A stretch of 11,257 nt of DNA from the IMG/VR virus record IMGVR_UViG_2734482772_000014; one strand, written 5' to 3'. This stretch comes from a virus (Duplodnaviria; Heunggongvirae; Uroviricota; Caudoviricetes). Both the position numbers and the translations under genes were made by a program. The notes beneath the pieces are model-generated. The model had not been told where the DNA came from. It worked only from the letters and a program-made list of their open reading frames with translations, and did not search any database. Below, piece by piece: positions 1,224 through 11,257 of this stretch (positions are counted from its first letter, which is position 1; each line of letters opens with the position of its first letter).

Positions 1224-1296
1224 GTTTATCTCCCTCAGAATGGTGTTTCATCGTCGAATGGTGGGCGTTGGTCGTATTCATCACGGGATGGCTGCT
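1205..1296. repeat. Copy B of the duplicated 5' leader, upstream of the M41-like gene
   Basis: Same sequence as 263-336 with a few substitutions; the duplicated start codon opens an 18-codon ORF. Confidence 0.8.
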
Positions 1297-1669
1297 GCGC
1301 ACGTCTCAGCGCGTCCGTTGCCTGTCCCCGCTGTCCTGCCTTCCCGCCGGGGCGTACCGTTCTGGCGCTGATCACACTGTCGGCTACTACCTGATACCCC
1401 TGCTGTGTACCTCCGTCCTGCCCTGTCCACTGATTGATCTGCATCGCTCCGGCAACACTGACTAAATCGCCTTTAACGTGTCCTGCCAGTGCGTCGGCCT
1501 GTTTGCCGAATGCCACCACGCCCAGCCAGAAAGTAACCTCTCCGCCCTCTGCTGTATGGCAGGGCAGTGCCACCGCTAACCGTCCCATTGCCATGCTTGT
1601 ACCGTTTGCTGTGGTACGGGTCTGGGGATCTGCCACCAGCCGCCCGTATGCTGAAATTTGTGCTGTCAT
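1235..1669 (-). CDS. ssb: Single-stranded DNA-binding protein (SSB family, 144 aa)
   Basis: OB-fold pattern aligns by eye with E. coli SSB (G.L..DP..R...NG...A; W..VV.FGK.A....L.KG; W.D..G), Gly/Gln-rich linker, and acidic C-terminal tail FDDETPF (SSB: FDDDIPF). Confidence 0.75.
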   Translation of the reverse strand: MTAQISAYGRLVADPQTRTTANGTSMAMGRLAVALPCHTAEGGEVTFWLGVVAFGKQADALAGHVKGDLVSVAGAMQINQWTGQDGGTQQGYQVVADSVISARTVRPGGKAGQRGQATDALRRAQQPSRDEYDQRPPFDDETPF

Positions 1670-1968
1670 AGATATTTCCTCATGTAGTCACTACCTCCGG
1701 GGATAATTTTCATTTCTTCCCTTAAAGGCCACTGCTCCGCCATTGCTGCGGTCGAGTGATTCCCGTCATCACGTCCGGCCTGTGCTGCCGTCCAGTGTGT
1801 TGCATATTCTGTAAATCCAATTTCTGCTGGCTGCCTCATCCAGTGGGCGATCATCCTCAAGGTCATTTGCAGGCTTTGGGTGTCGCCCTGTAATGCGCGT
1901 TTGTCAGTAAACCCCTTCAATGCTTCACGCTCCTGATAGGTCATTTTCTGGCTGGTTTCTGTATTCAT
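1666..1968 (-). CDS. Hypothetical protein (100 aa), translationally coupled to ssb
   Basis: SD AAGGTGG upstream of ATG 1968..1966; stop overlaps the ssb start (ATGA at 1669..1666). No recognised motif. Confidence 0.5.
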   Translation of the reverse strand: MNTETSQKMTYQEREALKGFTDKRALQGDTQSLQMTLRMIAHWMRQPAEIGFTEYATHWTAAQAGRDDGNHSTAAMAEQWPLREEMKIIPGGSDYMRKYL

Positions 1969-1990
1969 TGCCCACCTTCGTTATAAGCTA

Positions 1991-2016
1991 CCCCCCCCAT
2001 AGAATTTTTTTGGGGG
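1991..2016. repeat. C8 / G5 homopolymer hairpin (CCCCCCCC-13 nt loop-GGGGG)
   Basis: Directly visible; lies between the iteron array and the SD of the 100-aa gene. No U-tract after the stem on either strand. Confidence 0.5.
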
Positions 2017-2022
2017 TGTAAT

Positions 2023-2270
2023 ATCCCTACCAATCCCTACTAACTGGCTCAGGCCACGAATGGCAAGGCTTTCAGACTGGTAGGCATTCAATTTTGTTGC
2101 CCTACATAACCCTACTTATCCCTACTAAATCACTTCAACGGCATTTTGCTGCCTGTTTTATTTGGTAGGGATATGTAGGGATAAGTAGGGATAAAAATAT
2201 ATATCCCTACCTAGTTTAAAGCCTTGCTACGTCTGGCCTCGTCTCGTTTTTAGTAGGGCAGTAGGGATAA
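2023..2270. repeat. Iteron array, putative replication origin (crr/ori-like)
   Basis: About 11 copies of core CCCTAC/GTAGGG, often as (T)TATCCCTAC or GTAGGGATA(A/T). Forward copies at 2025, 2035, 2100, 2110, 2120, 2205; reverse copies at 2165, 2175, 2185 (exact 10-bp period), 2254, 2261. AT-rich tract ATAAAAATATATAT at 2191-2204. Sits immediately 3' of the primase-helicase gene. Confidence 0.6.
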
Positions 2271-2287
2271 GTGCCGCCGTAAAAGTT

Positions 2288-4729
2288 TCAATCATCACTC
2301 TGCCCGCTCTCCACACCGTAAGCACGGGGCATGAACTCCTCAGCCTTCTCGTTATAGCCAACGTTGGTTTGCGCTCTGCCGTTAATGCTTCTCGTCAGGT
2401 AGCTGGCTCGGTACTCTTTTGCTGCTGATTTTATGGCGCGTGAAAACTTATTGACGGAAAGCGGTTTACCCAAACCGTGATACTCCATAAACGCCAGATA
2501 AAGATGATAAAGATACGTCCTCGGCTCTGGCTGGCCTGCCCATGTACCTCCGCCCATCATCATGCCTTTGGGTTCGTTCATGAAAAAAAGCGCCGCACAC
2601 ATATCGACAACCGGATCCGTGCCGCGTTTAACCTCTAGCGCCTCCTGCGAATCGCGCTGCTCTAGTAATAGTTCCTTTGCTTTGTTCTGGTCGGAAAAGG
2701 TGGTTAGCAGGTGGCGGATAATCACCGGGATTTCTCGCCTGATTTTTGCTGTTAAATCCGGGTCTTTGTCTGCGTCTGATACCGGGTTATTAAACGGGAA
2801 TATCACGCGGCGGCGGGCAATGCCCCCGTTTCGCTCCGTGAATGTCATCGGCTCGTTATTGGTTGCCATAACAACGGCATTTATCACGGTTGTGAACTGC
2901 TTTTCATATTTCCCATCAATCTCTACCGGATCGCCGCCCGTAATGGCTTTAATCCCCGCACCCTCTCCAACATAGCGGGTCTGGTCAGGCATAATAATCA
3001 GGCTTTTTCCTACGAACTGCGCCCGTCCCCGTGCGGTGTCCAGCGTCATCATGCTACCGCTGGCGGTGTTGTGTTCACCTGCCAGCGTGGTTGCTATGCT
3101 GCTGAATACGGATTTTCCACTGCCGCCCTCGCCAGTTATCTCAATGAATAGCTGCCAGTCGTGACGCTTCGCCAGCACCATAAACAAGGCTGCTTTGATA
3201 CGCTCGGCCTTATGATGGTCGCCAGCCGTTGCATGATTCAGCCAACTGGTAAAATTGGGGGCGCTGGTGGTAATATTTTCCCCCGGCGCTGGCGGGGTGT
3301 AGGTGATCCCATTGTGGTTCATCAGCCAGTTACCCGGCGAATGGGCGGAAAACGTCTGCGTAGCGAGGTCATAAACGCCGTTATCAAAACCAATCAAATC
3401 CCCGCTCCGCTCACCAATTACCGGTATTTGCAGCTTCATGGTTGCGACAACCGATTTAATCCCCTTTTCGGTGTAGTGGGCTTCGTGCTCGTCGAAAATT
3501 GCCACCATAACCCTTTCTAATTCACTGTCTGGTAGCTTCTCCCATACGCCAGATTCGTAGCAGTAAACAGTGCCACTATCAGGGTTAACCGCCAACATAT
3601 CCCATCGAGATGAAAGCAACCGCGCTTTCTGGCTGGCTGCCATTTGTGCAATATCTCCGACTTCGGCTTTACGGCGGGATTTACCGCCCGCAATGGCCTG
3701 TAGTTGTGGTTTCACGGCTTCCCCCTGAATCTGGTACATCGAATCGTTAAACGCAGCCGTAGCGACTTCCAGCCCGTTTTGCTGGCGGTAGTCGTCCCAG
3801 TCGGCTTTGTAGTCTGTCGGCGGCAGCGCCACCCAGCCAGCCACGGATAAGGCGGCTTTCTCTGCGGCATCTTTGCCCGTGTTCGCCTGTTCGTCCTGTT
3901 GGTGGTCGTTATCTGCGGCAATGATAATTTGCGACTGCGGGTGTTTCCGGCGCATCACTTCGGCAACGGGTAGCAGGTTGCCCGCATCAATGGCGCACAC
4001 TGTCAGCGCGTCAGGGCGCATCAGGTGGACTGATAAAGTGGTTGCCAGCCCCTCGGCAATAATCACCGCCTGCGGCTGTTCCGGTGCGTTAACGGCGTGA
4101 TATGCCCCGCGCTTTGCTGAACCTGTCAGGAGTCGCTTCTCTCCCTGCGGTGTAATGGTTTGCGCTGCTGCCACTGCGCCGGATTCGTCCACCAGCTCCA
4201 GCAATAACGAACCATCCGGCATAACCGGATAGTTAAACCCGGTCAGCCCTTTTGATTGCAGGTAATCAGATTCTCCCTGTGTGGCACTCTGGCGCATTCC
4301 GGCATACAGACGGGCAAACGTAGCCCTTCGCTGCTCTGCATCCTCTGCTGCCTGTTTCTGGCGCTCCTGCTCACGCTGCTGGCGGTCAGCTTCCAGTTGC
4401 TCTCTTCTATGGCTCGCTGCCACCGGGTCGGTTTCCGCTGCCCGGTAATCAATACCCAGCACATCAGCGGCAAGCCTTGCCGCTTCTGTGGTGTCGCAGT
4501 TGTTCACCTTCTTAATCAGGTCTAAACCGTCACCAGCGCCACACTGATTGCAGATAAAGCTACCGCGCCCGTTGTCGTCGAATCTGAAACGGTCTTTTCC
4601 ACCACATGCAGGGCATGGAGAATGGCGGCGCGATGAATCAGGCACGTCGATAGACAATCCAGCCAGCACATAAGGCCAGCGCCCGGCGGCGGCACTGGTC
4701 ACTTCGCGGATAATGTCGATATTACGCAT
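2288..4729 (-). CDS. P4 alpha-like bifunctional primase-helicase (813 aa from ATG 4729)
   Basis: Zinc ribbon CPACGG...CNQCG; Toprim signatures (IIAEG..., IIIAADND); Walker A GEGGSGKS in the C-terminal helicase region. SD AGGGGG upstream of ATG 4729..4727, placed just after the stop of the 113-aa gene (4724..4722). Confidence 0.88.
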   Translation of the reverse strand: MRNIDIIREVTSAAAGRWPYVLAGLSIDVPDSSRRHSPCPACGGKDRFRFDDNGRGSFICNQCGAGDGLDLIKKVNNCDTTEAARLAADVLGIDYRAAETDPVAASHRREQLEADRQQREQERQKQAAEDAEQRRATFARLYAGMRQSATQGESDYLQSKGLTGFNYPVMPDGSLLLELVDESGAVAAAQTITPQGEKRLLTGSAKRGAYHAVNAPEQPQAVIIAEGLATTLSVHLMRPDALTVCAIDAGNLLPVAEVMRRKHPQSQIIIAADNDHQQDEQANTGKDAAEKAALSVAGWVALPPTDYKADWDDYRQQNGLEVATAAFNDSMYQIQGEAVKPQLQAIAGGKSRRKAEVGDIAQMAASQKARLLSSRWDMLAVNPDSGTVYCYESGVWEKLPDSELERVMVAIFDEHEAHYTEKGIKSVVATMKLQIPVIGERSGDLIGFDNGVYDLATQTFSAHSPGNWLMNHNGITYTPPAPGENITTSAPNFTSWLNHATAGDHHKAERIKAALFMVLAKRHDWQLFIEITGEGGSGKSVFSSIATTLAGEHNTASGSMMTLDTARGRAQFVGKSLIIMPDQTRYVGEGAGIKAITGGDPVEIDGKYEKQFTTVINAVVMATNNEPMTFTERNGGIARRRVIFPFNNPVSDADKDPDLTAKIRREIPVIIRHLLTTFSDQNKAKELLLEQRDSQEALEVKRGTDPVVDMCAALFFMNEPKGMMMGGGTWAGQPEPRTYLYHLYLAFMEYHGLGKPLSVNKFSRAIKSAAKEYRASYLTRSINGRAQTNVGYNEKAEEFMPRAYGVESGQSDD

Positions 4730-5063
4730 GGTTGCCCCCTGCCACGGTCGCGCCCATGTCTTTAACCATGCTTTGCCATATCTCACGCCCTACGTCAGTC
4801 AATCCGTCATTAGTGACGCAACGATCAAGAATCTCGATCCCCACGGTTTCCCACTGCGGGTAGGACACTTTCATGGCTGCCAGTGTGTAGCTATCGATCA
4901 GGCTGCGAACGCCTTTTACTCCATTGACGATTTCCACACGGATTTGCTGGCCTGCCGCGTCAACCATGAAGTAATTGCCACCATTGATAGCCGTAATGTG
5001 GTTATACAGTGCCGACGCATACTTATTCGCCAGCGCATTAAGTCGGAAATTTTTAGTAATCAT
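4722..5063 (-). CDS. Hypothetical protein (113 aa)
   Basis: SD GAGGGGG upstream of ATG 5063..5061; ends 4 nt before the primase SD/ATG. No recognised motif. Confidence 0.5.
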   Translation of the reverse strand: MITKNFRLNALANKYASALYNHITAINGGNYFMVDAAGQQIRVEIVNGVKGVRSLIDSYTLAAMKVSYPQWETVGIEILDRCVTNDGLTDVGREIWQSMVKDMGATVAGGNHA

Positions 5064-8127: not shown

Positions 8128-8559
8128 TTATGCGGCGGTAAATGCGTCTGGGTAGAGGTTGAGAATGTCGGCTATTTCAGACTTACTAAGCCCCTGATAA
8201 CCCCCTGCGGCGGCGTTGCTGTTAACCAACTGGATAACTCGCATCACATCACCACGGCCCACAAATCTGTAGCGTAGGTGTGCGCCAATGCCATCGGGGT
8301 TCTTTTCGTCTATACGCTCAAGCTGAATATCAAGCCTGCGCTCTAACTCGCTGGCGTAGTTCCTTCCAGACGAAAGGCGGCAATAACGCAGAATATCGTT
8401 TTCTGTCCATCCCTCTATACCAGTACGCAGCATATAGACGCGGGCGCGGTGTTTCTTTGGGGTACGCCTAGGTACTTGTACCGGGCTGGTGGTCGGCGTA
8501 ATATCAGACGTGCGAATATCTGAGTTAGCCGCCTGTAATGGGCGGTTTTTCTTTTTCAT
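8128..8559 (-). CDS. Hypothetical basic protein (143 aa from ATG 8559), coupled to alpA
   Basis: ATG 8559..8557 overlaps the alpA stop (ATGA). Lys/Arg-rich N-terminus suggests nucleic-acid binding. Family not recognised. Confidence 0.5.
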   Translation of the reverse strand: MKKKNRPLQAANSDIRTSDITPTTSPVQVPRRTPKKHRARVYMLRTGIEGWTENDILRYCRLSSGRNYASELERRLDIQLERIDEKNPDGIGAHLRYRFVGRGDVMRVIQLVNSNAAAGGYQGLSKSEIADILNLYPDAFTAA

Positions 8560-8762
8560 CAAGCCACCTTTCCCCGACGTTCTGCCAGCCAGTTGTTAAT
8601 CTCTACCGCATCAAAGGCGGTAATCTTCTCGCCCAGCTTTACCGGACGTGGTAGTGAACCGTTTCTTACTTTACGGTCGATGGTGGATACACTAACGCCC
8701 AGTAATTCAGCCAGGCGGAAGCGTCTGATATAGCCTTTTGTAGGAATAGTGTCGGTGTTCAT
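8559..8762 (-). CDS. alpA: AlpA/Vis-family phage transcriptional regulator / excisionase-like (67 aa)
   Basis: Winged-HTH signature RLAELLGVSVSTIDRKVRNGSLPRPVKLGEKITAFDAVEINNWL typical of the AlpA family; position next to a P4-type integrase. Confidence 0.8.
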   Translation of the reverse strand: MNTDTIPTKGYIRRFRLAELLGVSVSTIDRKVRNGSLPRPVKLGEKITAFDAVEINNWLAERRGKVA

Positions 8763-8876: not shown

Positions 8877-9842
8877 CTACCCCTTACCGTTGGCGGCAGC
8901 ACGTAAGTGTCTCAAAATCACATCTTCATTTGTGATTGCTAACGGTGGAATTTCGTCTTTATGAGCCACTATGCAATCCCGCCACTTCTCAGGGCTTATT
9001 TCTTTCTTTTTGCCACGGCATTCATCAGGATACTTTGACAAAAGATATATTGCAGATTTGAAAAGTTTTTCCCTGTTTTCAGCATGTCTCTCGGCATTAT
9101 GGTTGCTATTTTTTATTTCAGGTATTAGTTCCTGTTCTACCGCCATTTCGTATCGTTTTTTGCTCTTAGCTGCGTCAAAACTTCCATTAACCTTTGCGTC
9201 ATGAAGGTATTCTAAATCAGCCTTTGTTATATAAATGTTTTTATCTGACAGGCTACTCAGGTGAATTTGGGAACTTTGCATTTTGAATTTATATAGATCA
9301 CAATCAAATGTTGCTTCAAGTCGCACATATGGTTCTCCACATTCTTGTGAATGATAATGTCGTGTTGTTCTACCGCGTACACGCAACAATCCACATGCAA
9401 TTGATTTTCTTACAATAAAAGAGTTTTTGCCAATTTGTTCAAAAACATTTTTATTGTCGCTGTCTTCAACTGTCAGTGGTTTATGTGCATAAAATAGCTC
9501 ATAAGCACCGCTTTCAGATGCTGGGATATAAACTTCGTTGCTTGCGCTGGTAATAAGAAAAGGAAATGTAAACCTTACTTCTTCTGGGTACATAAGTAAT
9601 AAATCAGTTATAAAATTAGCATCTTTTTTGAAGTGGATGGTGGCATCAGATTCAATGAAATCAAGAAAGTCAGCATAGACATAAAAGTCTATATGTAGTC
9701 TATCTTTCCAATGCCATATATCATCAATTTCACAATTTAATAATTTTGATGCTCGCTCTATCGTGCAGTAGTCCAAAGGTGGAATACCTGATTCCTGCCA
9801 TAAATTTCTATGCACCACAGTTGTTTCATGAGAGTCGTTCAT
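8877..9842 (-). CDS. Orphan hypothetical protein (321 aa), AT-rich cargo between integrase and alpA
   Basis: SD AAGGTGA 7 nt upstream of ATG 9842..9840, stop TAG 8879..8877. Markedly AT-rich versus neighbours (by eye). No Walker A, HExxH or obvious hydrophobic TM stretch; C-terminal third is Lys/Glu-rich. Confidence 0.65.
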   Translation of the reverse strand: MNDSHETTVVHRNLWQESGIPPLDYCTIERASKLLNCEIDDIWHWKDRLHIDFYVYADFLDFIESDATIHFKKDANFITDLLLMYPEEVRFTFPFLITSASNEVYIPASESGAYELFYAHKPLTVEDSDNKNVFEQIGKNSFIVRKSIACGLLRVRGRTTRHYHSQECGEPYVRLEATFDCDLYKFKMQSSQIHLSSLSDKNIYITKADLEYLHDAKVNGSFDAAKSKKRYEMAVEQELIPEIKNSNHNAERHAENREKLFKSAIYLLSKYPDECRGKKKEISPEKWRDCIVAHKDEIPPLAITNEDVILRHLRAAANGKG

Positions 9843-9937: not shown

Positions 9938-11197
9938 TTAGTTCGCCCTTCTGAGAGGCGTTACGTTGTAGTCTTTTCCGCTTTCCAGTGCCACCAGCAG
10001 ATCAGCCCACTGTGCCAGTGCTGCTTTACGCTCATCAAAATACTGATGGCGGTTATAAATCCCCTCTACGCCCTTAATGCGATGATTGAGGCATCGTTCC
10101 GCCACGACAGGATCAACACCCAACGCTGCTAAATGAGTACGTGCGGTGCGTCGGAAGTCGTGAATCGTGAAATTAGGCACATCCGGCATTTCGGCGCGAA
10201 CCTTAGCCAGTGCTACGGGCAAAGTGCTTTCCTGAATATGTGGGATCATTCTGTTTTGCATCTTCCTGGCTGGAAGCACCCATGCGCTATTACATGAAAA
10301 GGTGTGTAGCTCTCTCAACCATTCAACGGCTGGGGAAGGTAGAGGTATATCAATAGGGTCTCCGTTTTTGCTGCGTTCTTCCGGCAAATGCCATACCGCA
10401 CCATCTAAATCAAACTCTTCCCATCGTGCGGCGCATAACTCCATCTTACGAACGCATAGTGCCAGCAATAGCTTAAATGTCAGTTCGTTCTGGCGGCTGA
10501 ATCCTTTTGCGGTGCGCATAGCCTCGAATAGCCTGATAAGCTCATCGCGAGTTAGCCAACGGTCGCGGGAAACCTCTTTACCACCAGCATCAGATACTTC
10601 AAACGCTGAACAAGGGTTTATCTCCAGAGCGTGGCGTTTTATCCCGTAGTCAAAGATACGGCGTGTCCAGCGTAATACATCTGTTGCTATCGTTGGTGCT
10701 CCTCGGTCAACGATACCTTTCAACATGTCGTCAATGTGGCGTGGCTTAACGTCCTCTACCTTCATATGCCCAATGCAGGGGTTAATATCCTTATCAATTC
10801 TCCGGCGAAGGATATCGGGATGTTTCCATCTCGGAAGTATCTGGCGCTCGAAGTATTCGGAGGCCAGATCTGAAACACGCATGGCGTTTTTCTCAGCCTC
10901 CATTTTTGCCAGTGCTTCAGCTTTTCGTTCCTGTTTCTCTGCTGCTACGTCATAGCCAAGAGCAACTCTGGCTGACAGCTCTTTGGCTGTCTCTCTGGCC
11001 TTTGATAGTGATAGCTCGCTATACGAACCAATTAGCATGGCGCGGGACTTCCCTGCGAGTTTATAGCGGAATCTCCATGTGGGGGTTTTGTCGGCTTCAC
11101 GGTAACGTAGGTATAAACCGTTACCGTCTGCCCGCCCCTCGAATCGCTCTCCGCTCTTAATCCATGCGCGGATCTGCATGTCTGTTAGTTTTGGCAT
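9938..11197 (-). CDS. int: P4-type tyrosine integrase (419 aa from ATG 11197)
   Basis: N-terminus MPKLTD...GLYLRY...WRFRYKLAGK...LIGSY is characteristic of P4-family integrases; C-terminal HDFRRTARTHL (HxxR) and GIYNRHQYFDERK (catalytic Tyr region). The ORF stays open to the window edge (11257), but the MPKLTD start is the conserved one. Confidence 0.88.
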   Translation of the reverse strand: MPKLTDMQIRAWIKSGERFEGRADGNGLYLRYREADKTPTWRFRYKLAGKSRAMLIGSYSELSLSKARETAKELSARVALGYDVAAEKQERKAEALAKMEAEKNAMRVSDLASEYFERQILPRWKHPDILRRRIDKDINPCIGHMKVEDVKPRHIDDMLKGIVDRGAPTIATDVLRWTRRIFDYGIKRHALEINPCSAFEVSDAGGKEVSRDRWLTRDELIRLFEAMRTAKGFSRQNELTFKLLLALCVRKMELCAARWEEFDLDGAVWHLPEERSKNGDPIDIPLPSPAVEWLRELHTFSCNSAWVLPARKMQNRMIPHIQESTLPVALAKVRAEMPDVPNFTIHDFRRTARTHLAALGVDPVVAERCLNHRIKGVEGIYNRHQYFDERKAALAQWADLLVALESGKDYNVTPLRRAN

Positions 11198-11227
11198 TTT
11201 GCGAATATCCAAACTTTGAATAGGGGG

Positions 11228-11251
11228 TGTACCCAAAGCAATGTACCCAAA
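11228..11251. repeat. Direct repeats TGTACCCAAA x2 upstream of int
   Basis: Copies at 11228-11237 and 11242-11251 (14-bp period), within 50 bp of the int start. Candidate Int arm-type sites or int promoter operator. Confidence 0.4.
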
Positions 11252-11257
11252 CCTCAT

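Follow-up and report, generated by a model that had tools for sequence, protein, structure and literature searches.

The stretch of DNA analyzed here (11,257 nt; the window) carries an uninterrupted run of eight G residues between a replication origin and the start of a gene encoding a 100-aa protein, and this raises the question of whether the run is a switch for that gene or belongs to something else. The run is C8 on the plus strand and G8 on the minus strand, on which the genes lie, and the last iteron pair of the origin (2021 to 2043) directly precedes it. By direct reading, the order on the plus strand is ...CATTGCCCACCTTCGTTATAAGCTA-CCCCCCCC-ATAGAATTTTTTT-GGGGG-TGTAATATCCCTACC..., where ATAGAATTTTTTT is 1999 to 2011 and the G5 is 2012 to 2016. 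On the minus strand the order is TTACA-CCCCC (2016 to 2012)-AAAAAAATTCTAT (2011 to 1999)-GGGGGGGG (1998 to 1991)-TAGCTTATAAC (1990 to 1980)-GAAGGTGGG (1979 to 1971)-CA-ATG (1968 to 1966). Since the Shine-Dalgarno (SD) region occupies 1979 to 1971 and the ATG 1968 to 1966, the 100-aa open reading frame (ORF) starts 23 to 30 nt downstream of the run. The original prediction was that slippage in the run would alter both the stability of a hairpin formed with the GGGGG segment and the spacing to the SD sequence; the positions on which it was built (C8 at 1991 to 1998, GGGGG at 2012 to 2016, and a distance of 23 to 30 nt from the ATG at 1968) were all correct by direct reading. The features discussed below are collected in Table 1.

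Table 1. Features of the window, with positions counted from its first nucleotide
Feature	Position	Strand	Basis or remark
Integrase	9938-11257	-	Pfam/PHROG
321-aa ORF between the integrase and alpA-like genes	8877-9842	-	No Pfam or PHROG match
Terminator-like hairpin plus T-run, just upstream of the alpA-like gene	8861-8838	-	Only strong intergenic minus-strand one in the window
AlpA-like excisionase/regulator	8559-8762	-	Pfam/PHROG
P4-family primase-helicase (Zn ribbon, Toprim, D5_N, DUF5906, Pox_D5)	2288-4786	-	Pfam and RefSeq annotation of a homologue
Iteron origin: 10-nt-spaced GTAGGGATA repeats in both orientations round an AT-rich centre (2192-2204)	2021-2272		Repeat analysis
TTACA linker and terminal iteron pair GTAGGGAT-TG-GTAGGGATA	2017-2043	-	Repeat families D1/D2; conserved in both origin lineages
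C5 arm (G5 on the plus strand), complementary to part of the G-run	2012-2016	-	Length 5 in 34/37 copies, 4 in 3/37
13-nt A/T-rich spacer AAAAAAATTCTAT, loop of the putative hairpin	1999-2011	-	Second least stable 13-mer in 1900-2330
G8 homopolymer (C8 on the plus strand), length-variable tract	1991-1998	-	Direct reading; G6 to G9 in 37 homologous copies
Linker TAGCTTATAAC between the G-run and the SD	1980-1990	-	Common to downstream variants a, b and c of the window's origin lineage
SD region GAAGGTGGG of the 100-aa ORF	1971-1979	-	Direct reading
100-aa ORF, first gene after the origin in this variant	1666-1968	-	No Pfam match; weak phrog_4935 match
SSB gene	1235-1669	-	Pfam SSB, E = 4e-15
M41-motif protein, 223 aa	496-1167	-	Short sub-threshold matches to peptidase M41/M50 metal-site motifs

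Judged by its gene content, the window represents a roughly 12-kb PICI-type phage satellite of E. coli that is transcribed leftward. The features of Gram-negative PICIs were found: int, alpA and pri-rep genes, a single direction of transcription, a size of about 10 to 15 kb, no virion or lysis genes and, judged by the closest E. coli relative, which sits at tRNA-Thr, integration at a specific att site. The large ORFs are all on the minus strand. Those between alpA and the primase gene encode an AntA antirepressor, a DUF4222 protein, an Ash/Icd-like protein and small products, and a gene for a PerC-like activator is also among those past SSB. A stretch 99.9% identical to 1600 to 2400 was located in an island of E. 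coli YZ22MPE6, between tRNA-Thr/proA and the pao genes. Sigma-70-like promoter matches were depleted in the window (3 found versus 12.9 +/- 3.6 expected), and a scan for strong intergenic minus-strand terminators returned none between alpA and ssb. Promoter depletion together with the lack of an internal terminator fits the unidirectional operon of Gram-negative PICIs, as outlined in parts of PMC6092414. The 321-aa ORF occupies a position where PICIs often carry accessory genes. Some genomes annotate homologues of the 223-aa protein as "peptidase M41 family protein"; it may therefore serve as a small accessory protein of metalloprotease type. The 100-aa and SSB ORFs overlap by ATGA. We also noted that in strain ZF31 (NZ_CP047455, about 1440 to 1500 of locus L043) the 100-aa gene is internally deleted (…GAAAATGACCT joined to TGAGGATGATCGCC…) and unannotated, and that both ssb and the tract (G8) are intact.

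The origin follows the primase gene immediately. Gram-negative PICI origins are described, in parts of PMC6092414, as lying 3' of pri-rep, with sets of iterons that flank an AT-rich segment. The same layout was observed here, with iterons from 2021 to 2272, the AT-rich centre at 2192 to 2204 and the primase stop at 2288; the P4-family primase-helicase is the presumed initiator for these iterons. Across the 404 nt that comprise the origin and the end of the primase gene, length was constant in more than 70 genomes except for gains or losses of iterons. These changes, of exactly 10 nt (window 2096 to 2128 and 2165 to 2196), were the only indels in that comparison: NZ_LR898868 (L052) and a further copy (L054) each have one extra GTAGGGATA/TTATCCCTAC unit, and strain F11 (NZ_CP184143) is 10 nt shorter. 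The iteron TTATCCCTAC resembles the DnaA box TTATCCACA, with agreement at 7/9 positions.

Inspection of base composition revealed that C8 is the sole G/C run longer than 5 in the window. Under an i.i.d. model, about 0.32 G/C runs of 8 or more would be expected in a sequence of this length, so the run by itself is only mildly unusual; for a C5/G5 pair within 13 nt, a rough post-hoc probability is about 0.02. Homopolymer tracts in Escherichia show a strong A/T bias and are partly phage derived (PMC8928963), and 8-bp G:C runs, including those in leu tRNA genes, are rated as outliers in the E. coli genome (PMC8510543). A G:C run of 8 to 9 bp is unusual for E. coli, yet precedented (PMC8510543).

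To see how the tract behaves among relatives, the 801-nt segment from 1600 to 2400 and the tract-containing 151-nt segment from 1930 to 2080 were used as queries. The former matched 115 of 5,426 complete E. coli genomes and the latter 77, all chromosomally; megablast of a phage collection gave no match. None of the complete E. coli genomes matched the window at 100% over 1930 to 2080. We read the sequences from 25 E. coli genomes, one Atlantibacter MAG, six IMG/VR contigs and nine metagenome contigs, and the tally was made on 37 non-redundant copies. G6 was present in 5 copies, G7 in 12, G8 in 15 and G9 in 5, and a run shorter than 6 or interrupted was seen in 0/37. The matches were 799 to 802 nt long for the 801-nt query and 149 to 152 nt for the 151-nt query; the length differences of the longer comparison were all confined to 1930 to 2080, and the G-run was its only 1-nt indel site. 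Single-base changes in the length of the run (6 to 9) were far more frequent than changes at any neighboring position, and most of the flanking differences look like single events. When the first 31 copies were grouped by their flanks, 12 haplotypes were obtained, 5 of which had two or three tract lengths, so at least six independent length changes have occurred in this set. The T that follows the run was replaced by G in three backgrounds (L034, about 9995; L040, about 3640; L055, about 1600; window position 1990). This recurrent T-to-G substitution at the 3' edge is of the kind that transient misalignment at a run's end typically leaves.

The variation was not seen within clonal sets of genomes. 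One length was shared by at least 12 genomes of the same lineage (coordinate 68405) from different laboratories, one length was shared by six 0H-series genomes, and one TAAAAC/100-aa haplotype had G6 in 5/5 copies (four genomes and one metagenome). Metagenome contigs with SPAdes-style "NODE" names, which are likely to be short-read assemblies, ranged from G6 to G8. These patterns point to length variation that is heritable rather than noise. The expectation that tract length differs among homologous elements was thereby borne out, with G6 to G9 in 37 copies and repeated independent changes. Comparing homologous elements had been proposed as the check, and invariant length, which would have counted against the expectation, is not what the strains show. 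As the tract is variable between strains and constant in clonal sets, the predicted polymorphism is borne out over evolutionary time, rather than on the time scale of a clone. Difference in tract length among strains is one mark of a contingency locus, and it was found here (G6 to G9, with at least six within-haplotype changes).

The copies also differ in the loop and in the SD region. The loop had been described as T-rich, and the window indeed has T7 on the plus strand (A7 on the minus strand, 2005 to 2011), although this is a private SNP that is absent from 36/36 other copies. It results from a G-to-A change in the window; relatives have AAAAAGATTCTAT, and the loops of the other 36 copies contain AAAAAGA, AAAAAAGA or AAAAATA in place of A7. 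Separately, a 1-nt deletion in the SD region (CGAAGG to CGAGG, window 1977 to 1978) was observed in 7 copies (L026, L028, L038, L041, L042, L048 and others), and it combines freely with G7, G8 and G9. Compensation between the length of the G-run and this GAAGG/GAGG indel was considered and rejected, since G7, G8 and G9 all exist together with GAGG.

We then asked what the tract travels with. In variant a, to which the window belongs, it is followed by the 100-aa gene and ssb. In variant b (L031, L033, L037, L045 and L046) both of these genes are missing, and a canonical terminator, about 45 nt further downstream of the tract, a 57-aa gene, the M41-motif gene and perC follow instead. In variant c (L032, L036 and L040) ssb follows directly, without the 100-aa gene. 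Homology with the window breaks at 1977 in variant b and at about 1973 in variant c. A second origin lineage (E. coli 873.10 and three IMG/VR contigs) has the same iteron type and is about 73% identical overall. It retains TTACA-C4/5-A5/6GATT...-G7-9; homology stops at the 3' end of the G-run, after which come a 69-aa gene and ssb. Four cassettes are thus found joined to one origin end, with junctions within about 20 nt of the G-run (1973 to 1990; L031, L032 and L051), which marks a clear module boundary in this satellite family. Because the same tract has four downstream partners and homology ends at the run, the tract is the last element of the primase-origin module and not a leader of the 100-aa/ssb genes.

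Comparison of the window with a copy of the second lineage (L051) revealed that the segment TTACACCCCCAAAAAAATT is identical at 17/19 positions, versus 72/135 (53%) for the internal origin spacers (Fisher p = 0.0025); when the 3' half of the loop is added, identity is 17/23 and p = 0.07. From these alignments, conservation in the terminal segment would lie in the C-run and the A-run that adjoin the last iteron pair, with the G-run as the outer limit. A mosaic was noted in strain 19-5 (NZ_CP047010, L050, about 430 to 800). Like L051, it has a second-lineage primase 3' end and first iteron pair; the remainder of its origin, and its tract block, are those of the window's lineage. Recombination must therefore have taken place within the origin.

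Homologues of the 100-aa gene also follow primase-origin modules with other iterons, namely GGTGAACA (P4 type, in a Tatumella element), AGTGGGGA, AGTGAGG and CTGTACCA. Of these, the Tatumella element alone has C/G runs at the corresponding position, in the form of a C5/G5 pair (GCGCCC-AAAACTTTT-CCCCCAGGGGG-TAAC). In the AGTGGGGA, AGTGAGG and CTGTACCA loci no G/C run of 6 or more was found at this place, and the last iteron leads straight into the start codon. The crr region of phage P4 resembles the window in that its iterons lie directly downstream of the primase gene and in that each of its 120-bp repeats ends in an iteron pair followed within about 10 nt by A8(C)T6. P4 differs in that the terminator t-alpha separates alpha from crr, in that its ori is a distinct site 4.5 kb away and in its TGTTCACC iterons, and it has no G/C homopolymers beside the A-run. 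An A-run beside the terminal iterons is shared by the window, P4 crr and the Tatumella element; thus, the recurring design is the A-run, and the G-run is lineage specific. EcCICFT073-type PICIs (Fillol-Salom et al. 2018, PMC6092414, from parts of that paper) are similar in having the origin right 3' of a P4-family pri-rep, iterons that flank an AT-rich segment, one direction of transcription, and int and alpA at the upstream end. Unlike here, those parts of the paper mention no homopolymer at the origin edge; the G-run/C-run block differs from the EcCICFT073 type in being associated with one iteron family (GTAGGGATA) and, in shorter form, with the Tatumella element. A limited literature search found no earlier mention of a G-run at the edge of a PICI origin.

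The two consequences that the original prediction attached to slippage were not borne out. A hairpin of 5 to 6 G-C pairs with an 11- to 13-nt loop is predicted in the leader RNA, and it was no better than chance: against dinucleotide-shuffled sequence, z was -1.06 over 38 nt and -0.34 over 91 nt. The fold did not beat shuffles in the way expected of a structured cis-regulatory RNA (z from -0.34 to -1.9), and both of its arms are homopolymers. No Rfam family covers the hairpin at 1991 to 2016; the nearest match was a sub-threshold one to sR53 at 1966 to 1988 (10.8 bits versus a gathering score of 49; E = 9.3). The C arm is fixed at 4 to 5 residues, so the stem is capped and limited to 4 to 6 pairs. 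Changing the length of the run did not alter predicted stability, with ensemble energies for the leader of -17.63 (G6), -17.78 (G7), -17.60 (G8) and -17.65 (G9) kcal/mol. Nor would it alter the spacing to the SD, as the 3' end of the run is at a fixed distance from it. The total spacing from iteron to ATG drifts by -2 to +1 nt among the copies, without compensation.

Scans for sigma-70-like promoters and for terminators returned none that includes the tract. A sigma-70 promoter with the tract as spacer was rejected by eye, because neither the TATAAC/TAAAAC downstream of the tract nor the TAGAAT on the plus strand has a usable -35 at 16 to 18 nt; the plus-strand TAGAAT is not conserved in the second origin lineage. 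A sigma-54 promoter was rejected on reading the sequence, as the GG-N10-GC spacing is not attained by G6 to G9. An intrinsic terminator on either strand was rejected because the loop is too long (11 to 13 nt versus 3 to 8) and there is no U-run; the tail after the hairpin is UAGCUUAUAAC on the minus strand and UGUAAUAU on the plus strand. Searching the window for a lambda-type cos site gave only 2-mismatch matches at chance level, none of them near the tract, and no convincing IHF or DnaA consensus site was seen by eye in the tract block. The only ORF through the tract is a mini-ORF without an SD (22 aa from TTG, 11 codons from ATG). The placement of a contingency tract, in a reading frame or a promoter spacer, was accordingly not found, and no hexamer pair brackets the tract on either strand.

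With no sign of a role as a genetic switch, the run is best read as an ordinary slippage hotspot. We consider it probable that the tract is a slippage-prone, near-neutral G:C homopolymer that closes the origin module of a PICI-type satellite, and not a 100-aa/ssb switch. The indel rate in E. coli rises exponentially with run length (PMC8510543), and on that basis the length changes would arise by strand misalignment during replication. They would be nearly neutral because the partner C arm caps any hairpin, because the run is in no credibly started reading frame or promoter spacer, and because the downstream genes are probably expressed by read-through from the island's single long leftward operon. 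The mononucleotide-run hotspots of E. coli (PMC8510543) are alike in run length, base composition and organism, in the dominance of single-base changes and in conversion of a flanking base; those data come from laboratory mutation-accumulation lines, and the present case is natural polymorphism among satellite copies. Several observations sit less easily with near neutrality: an uninterrupted G7 to G9 survives in the second lineage, where identity in the internal spacers is only 53%; the high identity of TTACA, C-run and A-run in that lineage (17/19 versus 72/135) is a hint that the terminal block is under selection; interrupted runs, and runs shorter than 6, occur in no copy; and the Tatumella element, with P4-type iterons, keeps its C5/G5 pair at the same place. 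Recombination between lineages, of the kind seen in the mosaic of strain 19-5, could yield the same local pattern of identity. Alternatively, the C-run, the A+T 13-mer and the G-run together might form a functional terminal element of the origin, in which the G-run is kept by selection with some tolerance of length. Such an element could act as an A-tract bend, as a GC-clamped segment that melts readily, or by binding the primase-helicase or a host protein. We regard this, the main rival, as unlikely. It agrees with the block always traveling with the primase-origin module whatever lies downstream, with the conservation of the block in the diverged lineage (p = 0.0025), with the low stability of the 13-mer at 1999 to 2011, which is the second least stable of the origin region, and with the absence from the 37 copies of any run that is under 6 or broken. 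It also agrees with the A-run that follows the terminal iteron pair both in the P4 crr 120-bp repeats and in the Tatumella element, and that is found near the last iteron cluster of the AGTGGGGA family. Yet G/C runs are absent from P4 crr and the other iteron families, the AT-rich centre between the inverted iterons (2192 to 2204) is the obvious melting site by analogy with the origins described in parts of PMC6092414, free variation of both the run (6 to 9) and the total spacing argues against a precise geometry, conservation falls to 17/23 (p = 0.07) with the 3' half of the loop, and interlineage recombination could account for the local identity.

A phase-variable switch, in which slippage of the G-run alters the hairpin or the spacing and turns translation or transcription of the 100-aa and ssb genes up or down, is improbable in our view. 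The polymorphism among strains, the short distance of 23 to 30 nt to the start codon and a weak second hairpin (GCUUAU/GUGGGC) that can occlude part of the SD would suit it. It is countered by an ensemble energy that is constant from G6 to G9 with a stem capped by C5, by the fixed position of the 3' end of the run relative to the SD, by the lack of promoter hexamers flanking the tract at usable spacing on either strand, by retention of the tract where the 100-aa gene, or both it and ssb, are absent, and by the single length within clonal sets, unlike contingency loci. A tract of 6 to 9 nt is also short for a contingency locus in mismatch-repair-proficient E. coli. Promoter contingency tracts such as the fim poly-C of Bordetella pertussis (PMC1891110) are similar in that a G:C homopolymer upstream of a gene varies among strains through slipped-strand mispairing. 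The tract described here differs from them in being short (6 to 9) and uniform in length within clonal sets, in not lying between recognizable -35 and -10 sequences, in having no predicted structural effect and in its linkage, which is with the origin and not with any one downstream gene. Many of the complete genomes were assembled from long reads, which are prone to error at G/C homopolymers of 7 to 9, and the length differences might on that account be sequencing or assembly errors. This is very improbable, given that lengths cosegregate with flank haplotypes across laboratories (G6 in 5/5 copies of the TAAAAC/100-aa haplotype), that clonal sets are uniform, that the likely short-read "NODE" contigs give the same range of 6 to 8, and that other homopolymers in the 801-nt region are free of such noise. 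It is extremely improbable that the run is translated, with TAT plus G forming an ATG such that the tract sets the frame of a mini-ORF (window 1965 to 2001, minus strand; ATG GGG GGG GTA GCT TAT AAC GAA GGT GGG CAA TGA). With G8, this would be an upstream ORF of 11 codons (MGGVAYNEGGQ), and coupling would be possible through the overlap of its TGA with the ATG of the 100-aa gene; with G7, it stops after 3 codons; and on the TAAAAC background, G6 and G9 each fuse it in frame to the 100-aa ORF. The two lengths on the TAAAAC/100-aa background (6 and 9) do differ by 3, but agreement of two lengths modulo 3 is a 1-in-3 chance, no SD-like sequence precedes the mini-ORF ATG, and the downstream ATG is the start that PGAP assigns to the gene in every genome. 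The TATAAC background is found with G7, with G8 and with G9, and no frame is thus kept there.

G-rich tracts near origins stabilize RNA-DNA hybrids in other replicons, examples being the G-run of ColE1 RNA II and mitochondrial CSB II, which is also length polymorphic. The likeness to the present tract lies in a G-run on the non-template strand that is transcribed through, located at an origin and naturally polymorphic in length; unlike those systems, the satellite has a primase-helicase gene of its own and does not depend on a transcript primer. We find it very doubtful that the G-run serves to tune the origin. In that reading, the run would be transcribed into G-rich RNA where the iterons end distally; this RNA could stabilize an RNA-DNA hybrid, or the run could act as a clamp on the A/T 13-mer next to it. 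Satellite replication after induction would be more or less efficient according to where slippage left the run between G6 and G9, with heritable differences from strain to strain in satellite copy number and helper interference.

Homopolymer indel hotspots are already well known. Read as a near-neutral hotspot, the tract provides a natural, documented example of a mononucleotide-run indel hotspot in a mobile element of E. coli, and it carries the practical warning that assemblies will differ in sequence at the G-run. The tract also marks the end of the primase-origin module and the start of exchangeable downstream cassettes, which aids in delimiting the modules of PICI-type elements. Only an effect of tract length on origin firing or downstream expression would make the tract a new means by which a satellite varies its behavior.
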